Shown one piece after another: positions 13,938 to 59,269 of a DNA stretch of 64,000 nucleotides (the first letter of the stretch is position 1; each line of letters opens with the position of its first letter). The notes under the pieces are model-generated. The model was given only the letters and a program-made list of their open reading frames with translations. It did no database searches and had not been told where the DNA came from. The translations under genes were made by a program, and so were the position numbers. Origin of the DNA: Stegostoma tigrinum (taxonomy: Eukaryota); assembly GCF_030684315.1 (NCBI RefSeq), contig NC_081386.1, forward strand, positions 17,059,914 to 17,123,913, written 5' to 3'.

Positions 13938-14010
13938 ATGAAGGGAATGTTGCTGATTATATATTAGATGGTATGAAGGGAATGTTGCTGATTATATATT
14001 AGATGGTATG
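13938..14010. repeat. Perfect 35-bp tandem duplication
   Basis: atgaagggaatgttgctgattatatattagatggt at 13938-13972 and 13973-14007, then atg. Confidence 0.95.
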
Positions 14011-35162: not shown

Positions 35163-36106
35163 TGCTTTTTGTCATTTATATGAATGATTTGGATGTGAAT
35201 ATAGGACAAATGATTAATAAACATGTAGATTCCACCAAAATTGGTGGTGTAATGAACAGTGAAGATTGTTGTGAGAGTACAACAGGACTTTGATCAATCA
35301 GATAGGCTGGGGCATGGCAGATGAAGTTTAATTTTGATAAATTCGTGCTGTCGCATATCAGTAAGGCAAATCAGGGCAGGACTTAGGACACTTAATGGTA
35401 GGATTCTGGGGAGTGATGCCAGACAAAGAGACCTTGGGGGTGCGGGTTCATAGTTCCTTGAAGCGGAGTCACAGGTAGATGGGGTAGTGAAGGCAGCATT
35501 TGGTATGTTTACATTTAGCGCATTGAGTATAGGAGTTGGGAGGTCATGTTTTGGCTGTACAAGGCATTGGTTAGGCCACTTTTGGAATAGTGCATTTAAT
35601 TCTGGGTTCCACGCTATAGGAAAGATGTTGTTAAACTTGAAAAGGGTCAAGAAAAGAGGTACAAGGATGTTGTAAGGCTTGGAGGGTTTAAGTTATAGGG
35701 AAAGGCTGAGCAGGCTGGAGTTATTTTCCCTGGAGCACCAGAGACTGAGGGGTGACTTTATAGAGGTTTATACAATCATGAGGAGCATGAATGGGGTGAA
35801 TAGCCATGATCTTTTTCCCATGGGAGGGGTCAAACTCTAGATGGGAAAGGTTAAAGGTGTGAGGGGAAAAGAATTAAAAGGGACCATACTGGCAGCTTCT
35901 TTACACAGTGGGTGATGTGTGTATGGAATGAACTGCCAGAGAAAGTGGTGGAGGTGGGTATAATTGCAACATTTAAAAAGCATCTGGATGAGTATATGAA
36001 TAGGAAGAGTTTAGAGAGAGATGAGACAAACGCTGGCAAATTGGTCAGCATGAATGAGTTGGACTGAATGGTCTGTTTCCGTGCTGTACAACTCTTAGGA
36101 CTCTAT
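35163..36106 (+). mobile_element. 5'-truncated CR1 LINE
   Basis: LLFVIYMNDLD at the 5' end, CR1 ORF2 C-terminal motifs, and tail gtctgtttccgtgctgtacaactcttaggactcta. Confidence 0.9.
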
Positions 36107-36204
36107 AACTGAAGAGTAACCATAGATCGCCTCCACAGATTCTAGAGAGAAGAAAAAATGCCAAATATTGAAGTCAGAAATAGAACCAAACTCCCACTCA
36201 TTGA

Positions 36205-36354
36205 TAATGGGAACTGCAGATGCTGGAGAATTCCAAGATAAAATGTGAAGCTGGATGAACACAGCAGGCCAAGCAGCATCTCAGGAGCACAAAAGCTTTT
36301 GTGCTCCTGAGATGCTGCTTGGCCTGCTGTGTTCATCCAGCCTCACATTTTATC
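36205..36354. mobile_element. PLE tail-derived fold-back insertion with 13-bp TSD
   Basis: TSD tcccactcattga at 36192-36204 and 36353-36365. Palindrome 36237-36354 centred on aaaag|ctttt. Confidence 0.92.
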
Positions 36355-36481
36355 CCACTCATTGACATGTTTTCATTGTTTGGCCAGGATATTCAAAAAG
36401 CCGTGGGGGACCATCACCCAGGCCCTTTTCCCGTTGGATGACGAGAGATCGACAAACCATGAGATTCATCAATTCGTGGAG

Positions 36482-38338
36482 AAATAATAGGAACTGCAGA
36501 TGCTGGAGAATCCGAGATAACAAGGTATGGAGCTGGATGAACAGAGCAGGCCAAGCAGCATCTCAGGAGCAGGAAAGCTGACATTTCGGGCCTAGACCCT
36601 TCATCAGAAATGGGGGAAGGGAAGAGGGTTCTGAAATAAATAGGGAGAGAGGGGAAGGCAGATCGAAAATCGACAGAGGGGAAGATAAGTGGAGAGGAGA
36701 CAGGAAAGTTAAAGAGGTGGGATGGAGGTGAGTATAGGTGGGGAGGTAGGGAGGAGATAGGTCAGTCTGGGGAGGACGGGCAGGTCAAGGGGGCGGGATG
36801 AGGTTAGTAGGTAGGAAACGGGGATGTGGCTTGCGGTGGGAGGAGGGTATGGCTGGGAGGAAGAACAGGTTAGGGAGGCGGGGACAAGCTGGGCTGGGTT
36901 TGGGATGGGGGGGGGGGTAGATTTTGAAGCTTATGAAATCCACATTAATACCATTGGGCTGCAGAATTCCCAAGCAGAACATGAGTTGCTGTTCGCGTAG
37001 CATCATTGTGGCAGTGCAGGAGGCCCAGGATGGACTTGTCATCTGAGGAATGGGAGGGGGAGTTGAAATGGTTCATGACTGGGAGGTGCAGCTGTTTATT
37101 GCAAACTGAGCGTAGGTGTTCTGCAAAGTGGTCCCCAAGCCTCCGCTTGGTTTCCCCACTGTAGAGGAGGCTACAATGGGTACAGCGGATGCAGTATACC
37201 ACATTAGCAGATGTGCAAGTGAACCTCTGCTTGATGTGGAAAGTATTCTTGGGGCCTGGGATGGTGGTGAGGGAGGTGGTGTGGGGTCAGGTGTAGCACT
37301 CCCTGCGGTTGCAGGGAAAATTGCTGGGTGTGGTGGGGTTGGAGGGGGGTGTGGAGTAGACAAGGGAGACACAGAGAGAGTGGTCCTTCTGGAAAGCAGA
37401 CAAGGGTGGGGAGGGAAAAAATGTCTTTGGTGGTGGGGTTGGATTGCAGATGGTGGAAGTGTTGGAAGATGATGCGTTGGATCCAGCCATTGGTGGGGTG
37501 GTACGTGAGGAAGAGGGGAATTCTCTTTTGATTGTTATTGCAGGGACGACTTGCAGGAAACGTGAGAGATAAAGTTGAGGGTGTTCTCGACCACTGTGGG
37601 TGGGGGGGGGGGGGGGGGGGGGGTTGCAGTCCTTGAAAAACAAGGACACCTGAGATGTACAGGAGTGGAATGCCTCATTCTGGGAGCAGATGTGGTGGAG
37701 GTGAAGGAATTGGGAATAGAGGATGGCATTTTGCAGGAAGGTGGGTGGGAGGAGGTGTAATTATAGGTAGCTGGGGGAGTTGGTGGGCTTGAAATAGACA
37801 CCGGTTTCTAGGTGGTTGCCTGAGATGGAGACAGAGGTCCAGGAAGGTGAGTGAGCTGTTAGAGATAGTCCAGGTAAACTTAAGGTAGAAGGTGTTGGTA
37901 AAGTAGGCGAACTGTTCGTGCTCCTCATGGGAGCACGAGGCGCCGCCGATACAGCCATCAAATGTAACGGAGGAAGAGGTGGGGTTTAGGGCCAGTGTAG
38001 GTGCGGAAGAGGGATTGTTTCATGTAACCCACAAAGAGGCAGGAATAGCTTGGGCCCACGCAGGTGCCCATGGCCACCCCCTTTGTCTGTAGGAAGTGGG
38101 AGGAATTGAAAGAGAAATTGTAGAGGGTGAGGACGAGTTCGGCTAAGCAGATGAAGGTGTCAGTGGAGGGGGACTGGTCAGGCCTGCAAGACCAGAAGAA
38201 GCGGAAGGCCTTTAGACCATCTGCATGGGGAATGCAGGTGTACAGGGACCGGAGTCCACAGTAAAAATGTAAAAATGAGGTGTTGGGGACGGGCAATTGG
38301 AAGTTCTGGAGGTGGTGGAGGGCGTGGGTGGTGTCAAG
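36482..38338 (-). mobile_element. 5'-truncated Penelope-like element (RT and GIY-YIG, frameshifted) with 11-bp TSD
   Basis: Minus ORFs give QTKGVAMGTCVGPSYSCLFVGY...LFLRYI (PLE RT), YFKPTNS and VYCIRCTHCSLLYSGETKRRLGDHFAEH. TSD aattcgtggag at 36471-36481 and 38339-38349. Confidence 0.93.
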
Positions 38339-39849
38339 AATTCGTGGAGCGGCTACACAAGCAGCAGAGGTGCCAGAGCCCCATCCTGTGGTCAGCAGCA
38401 ACACAGCAGGCTGGCGGCATCGAAATCAGCGCCAAAGCAAAGGCACTGAGCCCAGAAAAAGAAACTGCTGCAACCGCTGAAGCGCCTGTGCCGCAAGGCT
38501 GCCGAGTCAGCTGGTGACCAACGTCGGGCTTTGCAGGGGAGATTTGGAGAGGCAGGCATCCTCAATTCATGCGTGTGGAAGGAATGGAATTAAAACAATA
38601 CTCGCCCAGGAACGAATTACCCGTGCATTGCTGGAAACTGTCTCCCAGGATTTCAATACAAATATCCTGCAGGCGAAAAAGAAGCCAAAGGAGTATAAAA
38701 TAATGATTTTGTACATCGTAAAGAAAATTTGGAACTAAAATATAACGTTTAGAAATAACCGTAAGCGTTTGTCATGTCTAATTTAGAATCTATCGGATAC
38801 AACAGTGTTGCATTCCACGTGCACTGTTCCCTTCATTTTTCCCATCGGCTTCCAATGGCTTTTTCACGGGAGGCTGACTGGCAGGATGAATTTTCACCCA
38901 GGAGGCAGGTAGACGAGTAAAATTCTGCAACAGGCAGCGTGAAGCATCATCCTGTCCCGGCCTTTATTACAACGGCATGGTCAGGCTTGGAAGGACTAAC
39001 TACCCACAAGAAGCAGATGGTGCATTCAGACCATGAATTTCCTTGTCTTTCACAAAATTGGGAACGGACTAATAGTACAGGAGGGAAGTCCCATCAGCAG
39101 ATCATAATCACAACCATGGACCGCCTTGTAAACGGACTCCCCACCATCACAGTGGACCGGCAACTATGGCTATTTTCTCAGTGGAACCTTAAGGCGGCGG
39201 AGAGGACACCTCAAGAGGGAGACAGTCTCTATTATATGAAAAGCAGGCTTTTCATCTGCTTCTGAGCTGGAGGCGTCTTGTTAGCTCTCAGCCCTGTGGG
39301 TAACACGCCACTGTCCTTAGTGTGATTACAAGTGCGTCCCTTGGCTAATAACTGGACGGGGGGGGGGGGGGGGGGGGGCAGAAAAAGCACTGAACCGTAA
39401 CTGTTCCCTATTGAGTGCAGATCTAGCAACGTCATTCTCTCCCAAAGCATTGCTTGTGATTACAGAGCATTTAAATTGAGCACCGTCCACAGCAAGTCAA
39501 CATATTATGTGAACTGGCCACCCAATCAGGTTAAAGAATCCTGACTCAGCTACACAGTCAGAGTCAGGAATTGTCCTATAACAATTCATTCAATGGCAAA
39601 TAAAGTCAATAAAGCAAAATGAAGAGGGAAGTGAAGAAGAGATTTAGAGGGCAGTAGATAATAGCTGTTTTTCCTCAAACTTGCACTTTATCTGTATGTT
39701 TGTCACAATTTCTGATTAGTTCATAGCTCAGTTTGTGGTTAATAGTGGTTAAGAGACTGCGCTCATTTCTCCTTGATCAAATATGTGCTCAATTAAAGCA
39801 CAGCTTCCCTTTCTCTTGGTGTGACCCTATTTTAATGGTCTGGTCTTTG

Positions 39850-54159: not shown

Positions 54160-54402
54160 TCTTTCCTCTCAGATCTTAAACCTCTAGTTTTGGATTTCCC
54201 TACTCTGGAAACTGTTCAACTTATCCATACCTTCATGATTTTATAACCTTCCATAAGATCACTTTTCATCCTCCGACACTCCAGGAAAAACAGCCGCAGC
54301 CTATTGAGCCTTTCCGGAAATCTCAAGTTTCACAACAGCTTTCCTGTAGCAGGAAGACCAGAATCGAATACAGAATTCCAAAAGTGGCTTAACCAAAATC
54401 CT
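54160..54402 (-). mobile_element. CR1 LINE fragment interrupted by the PLE below
   Basis: ttcatgattttataacc...attccaaaagtggcttaaccaa, continuing briefly after 55090. Confidence 0.7.
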
Positions 54403-55080
54403 AGATAATAAAATGTGAAGCTGGATGAACACAGCAGGCCCAGCAGCATCTCAGGAGCACAAAAGCTGACGTTTCGGGCCTAGACCCTTCATCAGAGAGG
54501 GGGATGGGGTGATGGTTCTGGAATAAATAGGGAGACAGGGGGAGGCGGACCGAAGATGGAGAGAAAAGAAGATAGGTGGAGAGGAGAGTATAGTGGGGAG
54601 GTAGGGATGGGATGGGTCAGTCCAGGGAAGATGGACAGGTCAAGGAGGTGGGATGAGGTTAGTAGGTAGGACATGGAGGTGTGGCTTAGGGTGGGAGGAA
54701 GGGATGGGTGAGAGGAAGAACAGGTTTGGGAGGCAGAGACAGGTTGGACTGGTTTCGGGATGCAGTGGGTGGAGGGGAAGAGCTGGGCTGGTTGTGTGGT
54801 GCAGTGGGGGGAGGGGACGAACTGGGCTGGTTTTGGGATGCGGTGGGGGAAGGGGAGATTTTGAAGCTGGTGAAGTCCACATTGTTACCATTGGGCTGCA
54901 GGGTTCCCAAGTGGAATATGAGTTGCTGTTCCTGCAAACTTCGGGTGGCATCATTGTGTCACTGCAGGAGGCCCATGATGGACATGTCAACTAAAGAATG
55001 GGAGGGGGAGTGGAAATGGTTTGCGACTGGGAGGTGCAGTTGTTTATTGCGAACCGAGCGGAGGTGTTCTGCAAAGCGGT
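54403..55080 (-). mobile_element. PLE 3' fragment with intact hammerhead core and 10-bp TSD
   Basis: Minus ORF EQQLIFHLGTLQPNGNNVDF (PLE endonuclease C-terminus). TSD ccaaaatcct at 54393-54402 and 55081-55090. Confidence 0.9.
54468..54495 (-). ncRNA. Candidate minimal hammerhead ribozyme core in a PLE tail
   Basis: Minus strand reads CTGATGA-A-GGGTCTAGGCCC-GAAAC-GTC: CUGANGA box, helix II, GAAA box, GUC triplet. Local stem I is weak. Confidence 0.65.
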
Positions 55081-58427: not shown

Positions 58428-59269
58428 AGTGTAGAGCTGGATGAACACAGCAGGCCCACCATCCCCTACAGGGGGAAGTGCTACACCTCCCCCCAACCCC
58501 ATCCCAAGCCCTAAGAAGACGTTGATGTTGACCTGCACATCTGCGTAGTATACTGTATCCACTGTTCTTGTTGTGGCCTCCTCTACATCGGGGAAACCAA
58601 GCAGAGGCTTGGGGACCGCTTTGCGGAACACCTACGCTCGGTTCATAACAAACAGCTGCAACTACCAGTCGCAAACCATTTCAACTTCCACTCTCACTCC
58701 CTGGATGACATGTCCATCCTGGGCCTCCTGCAGTGCCACAACAATGCCATCTGAACATTGCAGGAACAGCAGCTCGCATTTCACTTGGGAGCCCTACAGC
58801 CCAATGGTATCAATGTGGACTTCACAAGCTTCAAAATCTCCCCTTCCCCGACCACATCAAAAACCAGTCCAACTCTTACTTGCCTCCCTAACCTGTCCTC
58901 CCAACTATCCACTCCCCCCACTTCAAGCCCCACCACCATCTCCCACCTACTAGCCTCATCCCGCCTCCCTGAACTGACCTATCCTCTCCCCAGCTCCCCA
59001 TCTACAATCACCTTTACTGGATCCAACCCTGCCTCCTCGATCTGTCTGTCTCTTCTCCACCTATCTTCTCCTTTATCCATCTTCTATCCGCTCCCCCCTT
59101 TCTCTCTATTTACTTCAGAATCCCCTTCCCCGCTCCCCCATTTCTGAAGAAGGGTCTTGACCCGAAACGTCAGCTTTCCTGCTCCTCTGATGCTGCATGG
59201 CCTGCTGTGTTCATCCAGCTCTACGCCTTGTTACCTCAGATTCTCCAGCATCTGCAGTTCCTACTATCC
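58428..59269 (+). mobile_element. PLE 3' fragment (GIY-YIG) with a short inverted tail at its 5' end and 10-bp TSD
   Basis: Encodes LLYIGETKQRLGDRFAEH and FHLGALQPNGINVDF. TSD cagttaacaa at 58418-58427 and 59270-59279. Segment ~58422-58456 is the reverse complement of ~59199-59233. Confidence 0.9.
59144..59171 (+). ncRNA. Candidate minimal hammerhead ribozyme core in a PLE tail
   Basis: CTGAAGA-A-GGGTC-TT-GACCC-GAAAC-GTC, with perfect helix II, palindromic ACGT helix III and a GUC triplet. Confidence 0.65.

Follow-up and report, generated by a model that had tools for sequence, protein, structure and literature searches.

We interpret the inverted repeat at positions 36205-36354 of the window (the whole stretch of 64,000 nucleotides analysed) as a head-to-head insertion of an endonuclease-bearing (EN+) Penelope-like element (PLE), which would have been primed from both target strands on an RNA already cut by the element's own hammerhead ribozyme. 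We put the probability of this reading at roughly 0.7. The 148-bp insert itself is most likely an inert by-product, an ordinary dead insert. The class of cut-site inserts to which it belongs, comprising thousands of natural events, bears on the formation of inverted ends in PLEs and on hammerhead cutting in vivo, and it gives exact predictions for an existing in vitro PLE system.

Comparison of the sequence with itself delimits two arms of 59 nt each (36237-36295 and 36296-36354), which abut without a spacer and differ at a single pair of positions, 36249/36342. The palindrome centred on 36294-36297 is the sole exact palindrome with arms of at least 14 nt in the 64-kb window, and a 13-bp direct repeat (36192-36204 and 36353-36365) flanks the insert. 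A preliminary description of this DNA had reported a 118-bp loopless palindrome with one mismatch (36237-36354) inside a 13-bp target-site duplication (TSD). Both observations are borne out, and a one-sided extension had been missed: the left arm runs 32 bp past the mirrored part (36205-36236), still inside the TSD, and this extension is the 'tail' known from PLEs. Because the left arm is 32 bp longer and the right arm's two final bases double as the TSD's first two, the insert between the TSD copies measures 148 bp (36205-36352) and is thus larger than its mirrored part. The centre, AGCT (36294-36297), is the word that directly follows GAAACGTC in intact copies (e.g. window positions 54397-54508 and 59134-59267), and the insert has no hammerhead core; comparison with the intact copies therefore agrees with the earlier placement of the fold point on the AGCT after the GTC triplet, with the ribozyme core missing. 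The short arm is wholly contained within the long one. Elsewhere in the window there are 11 further copies of the arm sequence, which is the end of a very abundant repeat. The features are listed below, with positions relative to the predicted cut counted from the first base after GTC as 0.

36192..36204, + strand: left TSD copy, 13 bp; present as a single copy at the empty site of a related species.
36205..36297, - strand: long (tailed) arm, a PLE terminus spanning the stretch between the predicted hammerhead cut (36297) and the outer reverse transcriptase (RT) start site B, assigned by match to intact copies; the site B end lies at +93 to +105 across the family, and its role as a putative start site is taken from PMC11167929.
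36205..36236, - strand: one-sided 32-bp 'tail' between the two putative RT start sites; a tail on one arm only is found in 177/190 parsed junctions.
36294..36297, no strand: AGCT centre, the first four bases past the predicted scissile bond, common to both arms (4-bp microhomology), from comparison with intact copies.
36294..36354, + strand: short (tail-less) arm, from the cut site to the inner putative RT start site A, with two terminal bases that also belong to the TSD; in 41/47 exact-centre loci the short arm stops at +55 to +70, the inner start site.
36353..36365, + strand: right TSD copy, 13 bp, from the direct repeat and the empty site.
36479..38425, - strand: neighbouring, separate and decayed member of this PLE family that retains RT fragments and GIY-YIG-like ones, a hammerhead core (36580-36607) and a tail; over 127 aa it is 76% identical to the family's 964-aa protein.

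The locus is a true insertion with a target-site duplication (36205-36352) and not an assembly artefact, because a contig from a related species skips exactly the insert and one repeat copy, joining 36087-36191 directly to 36353-36481. A contig from a second sequencing run, possibly of the same sample as the assembly, matches 36338-36505 without difference; none of the listed contig pieces crosses the entire palindrome, and bisulfite reads sampled at about 1 in 100 did not reach the unique flanks. The mismatch between the arms falls on a subfamily site, and the haplotype of the long arm is rare there (6/755 vs 308/755). The mismatch might thus reflect two templates, but with so rare a haplotype a later point change is equally likely.

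By its sequence features, the parent family is an endonuclease-bearing PLE. The 964-aa open frame of one long copy (L302) matches RVT_1 at 528-677 (E 1e-5) and, C-terminally, GIY-YIG (E 0.014), both below the Pfam cut-offs, and a DKG motif is visible; with this reservation, a single ORF carries an RT followed by a C-terminal GIY-YIG endonuclease, as an EN+ PLE requires. Three fragments from the window gave no Pfam match at E 0.01, the RT and GIY-YIG matches coming from the longer copy, and a PDB search with the family protein returned no match. Four of the nine long loci fetched (L295-L298) have two same-strand hammerhead motifs 3.4-3.6 kb apart flanking the ORF, which is the partial tandem layout of pLTRs. 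An inverted, 5'-truncated copy with a one-sided tail and a TSD, another EN+ PLE trait, is present at our locus and in 177/190 family junctions. The PLE origin first suggested for the palindrome is thereby supported by matches to intact copies, by the RT/GIY-YIG protein and by the hammerhead-bearing repeats. The decayed copy at 36479-38425 (-) sits 125 bp from the palindrome, and its hammerhead has a C-to-T change at position 15.2.

The hammerhead of this family is a predicted motif. All of its expected core letters—CUGANGA, GAAA, UH, an extra base after A9, G10.1-C11.1 and the palindromic 15.2-16.2—are the majority letters in 270 intact copies. Helix II is 93-99% paired at five positions in these copies and is also formed in the predicted fold; one of its pairs shows one-sided changes (T-G 238, T-A 18, C-G 12), and no two-sided change was seen among the 270. 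Helix I amounts to 2 bp adjoining the core by eye, its upstream strand pairing elsewhere in the monomer fold prediction, which contains helix II and no hammerhead (z 0.87); an Rfam scan likewise gave no hammerhead match. PMC4209133 describes minimal type I hammerheads of metazoan PLEs with the same core boxes, extra base between 9 and 10.1, G10.1-C11.1 pair and palindromic 15.2-16.2 without a helix III loop. Our motif shares these traits and appears to differ in helix I, for which 4-5 bp would be expected and only 2 bp are visible by eye here; its helix II has 4-5 bp. The same paper also characterizes such minimal motifs as weakly active in vitro and states that in vivo evidence for them is absent (PMC4209133).

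What could be the route from a hammerhead-bearing RNA to a loop-free palindrome? We propose that the element's enzyme would cut both target strands ~13-14 bases apart, whereupon one target 3' end would prime at the outer site B, giving the tailed arm, and the other at the inner site A, giving the tail-less arm. If the template begins with AGCU, both cDNAs would terminate by run-off at one common base, with AGCT as their last letters, and two such self-complementary ends could anneal over 4 bp and be filled in to give a palindrome without a loop. As a rule both arms would have been copied from a single RNA or from two identical RNAs, and in a minority of cases the RNAs would belong to different subfamilies.

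A genome-wide census, which had been proposed beforehand as a check on whether fold centres gather at the base after GTC, did find such a pile-up. The exact 32-base palindrome centred on AGCT occurs at 566 loci, compared with 38 for the equivalent palindrome on ACGT four bases upstream, 212 on the GGCC of helix II and 21 on a downstream GGCC; the first two controls were searched with tolerance of CpG decay, and a model of microhomology gives all four self-complementary 4-base words equal weight. Copy starts are similarly concentrated, with 3,201 at position 0 (834+2,367; three mismatches allowed, then consensus), as against 317 at -5, 475 at -1, 417 at +1 and 499 at +2. A null based on microhomology only, which covers blunt head-to-head joins of one consensus, predicts 492-926 at position 0. 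By eye, ~69 of the first 100 of the 2,367 cut-site starts are palindrome-type, which would leave ~1,500 other starts, ~3 times the number at neighbouring positions. A minor capped start at +1 or +2 was also considered as the source of the palindrome centre and was discarded, there being no peak at either position.

The cut site is also used where no palindrome is involved. Head-to-tail restarts after site A or B gave 272 matches genome-wide, and among the first 100 of these, examined by eye, 70 rows representing 36/64 separate loci restart exactly at the cut. A direct repeat of 13-16 nt encloses 17 of 20 hand-picked restart loci, which contain up to nine cut-start units with junctions that vary inside one array. 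Several restart junctions have additional A residues in front of AGCT. The arrays (L304-L315 and L319; e.g. G000:C5:1683559-1684132) are flanked by TSDs and consist of units of 67-107 nt that extend from the cut to a start site, with ragged junctions. Since the junctions often differ within one array, the sequences point to repeated RT restarts on a bounded template rather than to later DNA slippage. Finally, 6 of the first 30 of the 80 copies broken after GTC carry an A-rich insert of 3-9 nt in the predicted scissile bond, after which the sequence resumes. At a control bond no such insert was present among the nine letters listed per copy, which makes this a partial control, and copies breaking after GTC are not in excess (80 vs 83 at the control bond). 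With copy starts peaking at the cut, arrays restarting there and A-rich inserts occupying the bond, the genomic sequence makes it quite probable that the template RNA had been cut by the ribozyme. The earlier proposal that this RNA began at the predicted cleavage site thus gains support from the copy-start peak, the palindrome census, the head-to-tail restarts and the A-rich inserts, and the insert likely records a hammerhead working in a living animal.

Several individual loci in this material have peculiarities of their own. The bond inserts at L328, L336, L337, L340, L341 and L343 suggest tailing of the upstream cleavage product, followed by rejoining or by an RT jump. At L099, L100, L113 and L114 pieces of the ORF 5' region stand in front of the cut-start units in the same orientation, as jumps from the cut end to fragmented RNAs of the element would leave them. 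One array (L316, in the region G000:C1:149364334-149364497) has units of ~46 nt that run from the cut to ~+43 within a 14-nt repeat and thus indicate a shorter restart point.

The preliminary description had explained the palindrome differently, by a snap-back of the cDNA end on AGCT, and self-priming has been put forward for PLE palindromes in PMC3846280. In its fullest form this alternative would have a single cDNA end at the cut, gain a few T residues, snap back on AGCT and prime the second arm, with the endonuclease trimming at site A; endonuclease resolution is suggested as a source of the tail in PMC8557442. It is consistent with the inclusion of the short arm in the long arm at this locus, with the subfamily alleles mostly shared between arms and with the extra A before AGCT in restart junctions, which would correspond to extra T on the cDNA. 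The geometry, however, is unfavourable to it. For a cDNA that stops at the cut, the predicted fold pairs the last three bases with AGC across a 6-nt loop (probability ~0.6; the same fold is retained with one to three added bases); two such ends are predicted to pair through AGCT at -4.8 kcal/mol. The looped fold would place the junction between 0 and +9 instead of producing a loop-free centre. Junctions fitting it are common (16 of the first 100 of the 2,367 cut-site starts by eye); at our locus the long arm includes all of the short one, as fold-back predicts, but the loop of at least 3 nt that it calls for is absent. At 36205-36354 taken alone, fold-back is countered by this geometry and by the family statistics only. 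These statistics favour two primers. Head-to-head matches number 933, 17,035 and 46,207 genome-wide with 0-30, 31-91 and 92-152 bases between two anchors, and of the 190 junctions parsed, 177 combine a tailed arm whose end lies near +93 to +105 with a tail-less one that stops near +55 to +66, that is, one arm ends at each of two fixed sites ~35 bases apart, with a TSD mode of 14. This set mixes selected and unselected loci (3 more failed parsing); in the unselected subset alone, comprising 80 junctions taken from the initial 3 Mb of a single contig and containing two exact 10-base anchors at most 152 bases apart, the proportion is 73/80. In 39 of 64 asymmetric unselected junctions it is the tail-less arm that reaches further 5', and the same is true of 13 of the 17 junctions in which one arm starts at the cut; each arm of those 39 holds sequence missing from the other, hence neither is a copy of the other, and junctions of these two kinds cannot be fold-backs. 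Palindromes of mixed subfamily exist as well, 7 exact-centre loci combining two subfamilies at two adjacent bases. Arm disagreement exceeds background at most subfamily sites (18/130 vs 0.029, 5/166 vs 0.003, and 15/175 and 20/170 vs 0.017), shows no excess at one (2/122), and lies well below that of independent draws; most arm pairs would so appear to share a template and a minority to come from different subfamily RNAs, a mixture that gene conversion could mimic. Extension of both strands has moreover been observed in vitro with the anole protein (PMC11167929). We regard priming on both target strands as very probable and fold-back as improbable.

Another alternative retains priming on both strands and dispenses with the ribozyme, the AGCU end arising instead where RT halts, where a host nuclease cuts or where transcription starts at a low level, with the self-complementary word amplifying it. 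Other strong ends do occur in this family. A second copy-start peak at +7, just after the T run (1,785 matches vs a null of 190-646), about equals in size the cut-site starts that are not palindromic, and a ribozyme does not explain it, so that sharp peaks can evidently arise in other ways, and the peak at -33 to -31 is larger still. Helix I is weak, and no anole RNA reads were found at the cut (PMC11167929). On the other hand, the peak at position 0 has a width of a single base and coincides with the predicted scissile bond, head-to-tail restarts free of any palindrome show it too, and the A-rich inserts sit in that very bond. A capped start at the cut also agrees poorly with the letter preceding cut-site starts, which by eye shows no bias towards G (~21 of the first 100 rows, vs 70 of 100 at -32). 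We consider an end of non-ribozyme origin unlikely. A very small probability attaches to the idea that the palindrome is a self-contained mini-element, MITE-like or a microRNA hairpin, copied as a unit, or else a fold-back artefact of assembly. The 566 loci do share the same 32-base centre, and Rfam microRNA models match the hairpin, but the scores lie below the gathering threshold (mir-2756, 55.4 vs 61 bits; mir-3150, 52.2 vs 100 bits) and are such as any perfect hairpin would reach. Furthermore, arm ends, tail side and alleles vary by locus within a continuum of >64,000 head-to-head matches, and an artefact is excluded by the TSD together with the empty site. Two-strand priming on cut RNA therefore remains our preferred reading of the insert.

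Is cleavage then the general cause of inversion, as had been suggested at the outset? The unselected sample does not bear this out: among its 80 junctions there are 2 exact AGCT palindromes and 7 with an arm at 0, while 34 of the 160 arms begin between -33 and -31 and just 8 begin upstream of that interval, the anchor distance limiting the upstream arm starts detectable in this sample. With the cut involved in 7/80 junctions and most arms starting upstream of it, the sequences indicate that cleavage sets the position of the junction for the cut-site class and is not needed for inversion. Most head-to-head copies likely derive from uncut RNA starting 32-33 bases upstream of the cut. This start, at -32/-33, is the commonest among the arms (L265-L294) and coincides with helix I's 5' end. 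Copies starting at -32 after a letter other than C number 11,730 genome-wide, with G preceding in 70 of the first 100, and direct insertions starting there include some with an extra G or AG after the TSD; the G or AG that usually stands before this start is non-genomic. Reverse transcriptases can copy the RNA cap, and -32/-33 is likely a capped transcription start with the cap copied; alternatively, the AG may have been carried by a source locus. The -32 start also yields AGCT-centred palindromes. Three palindromes centred at -32 itself (L152, L154, L225) have small apex deletions, possibly the result of hairpin-tip repair.

Inverted pLTRs with junction palindromes, and the proposal of self-priming for them, are already known. 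PMC8557442 calls the way in which PLEs form inverted ends undefined, and PMC3846280 ascribes it to self-priming; in the open-access literature we found no report of twin priming, template jumps or genomic footprints of the hammerhead cut in PLEs. In the Poseidon element of the green anole (PAc), the protein, a predicted dimer, cleaves both strands and also extends them, using two internal start sites between which the tail lies; no RNA-seq reads start or end at the cut, cleavage is not needed in vitro, and uncut RNA is the main substrate (PMC11167929). The two fixed arm ends of the present family match those start sites, so that it likewise has two putative internal RT start sites that bound the tail, downstream of a predicted hammerhead at the transcript start; unlike in PAc, a minority of insertions here appear to derive from cut RNA. 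Inverted copies are not discussed in the main text of PMC11167929, where the single 'inverted' refers to a primer block. Pen2a and Pen3a of Adineta (PMC3846280; PMC8557442) share with our insert a head-to-head inverted, 5'-truncated copy, a one-sided tail of 30-40 bp, a TSD and a junction palindrome; the present insert differs from them in its minimal arms (59 and 93 bp) and in having its junction on the predicted ribozyme cut. Our census speaks for two-strand priming rather than for the mechanism given in PMC3846280, self-priming with an antisense strand as template.

Priming from both target strands also recalls the twin priming of L1, in which, according to PMC2837659, both strands prime cDNA, the inverted fragments lie within one TSD, and each is joined to a target 3' end; as in L1 dual priming, two RNAs can be used. 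Twin priming in L1 is described there as occasional and dependent on chance annealing, with non-overlapping fragments and an internal deletion (PMC2837659). Judged against that description, the inversions of the present family share the two inverted fragments within one TSD, each joined to a target 3' end, and differ in being very common, in using two fixed sites and in having both arms copy the same segment, so that the insert works like twin priming and is not an L1 product. Telomerase synthesizes repeats by recopying a bounded RNA template. The DRT2 reverse transcriptase, according to PMC12039810, also copies a bounded RNA template repeatedly end to end, and the cut-start arrays of 67-107 nt may be compared with its product. 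Unlike the products of telomerase and of DRT2, the PLE arrays are rare by-products (272 junction matches) and ragged, and circular templates are possible.

We tentatively extend these observations to a more general hypothesis, which the genomic patterns make conceivable without making it the likelier outcome: two-site, two-strand priming may be the normal insertion route of this PLE, the hammerhead may cut in the germ line, and the short template from cut to start site may be either recopied by its telomerase-related enzyme in the manner of telomerase and DRT2 or joined head to head. If true, the genome would constitute a base-resolution record of both RNA 5' ends, the capped start at -32 and the ribozyme cut at 0.

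Repeats of other kinds accompany this family. At L241, L245, L250-L252 and L260-L264 there are tandem, internally deleted mini-elements with units of ~290-360 bp that contain a hammerhead and the start of the ORF, a retrozyme-like layout. In the window itself, a 35-bp unit is perfectly duplicated in tandem at 13938-14010, and three copies of a 39-bp repeat lie at 54745-54856, upstream of a PLE end.
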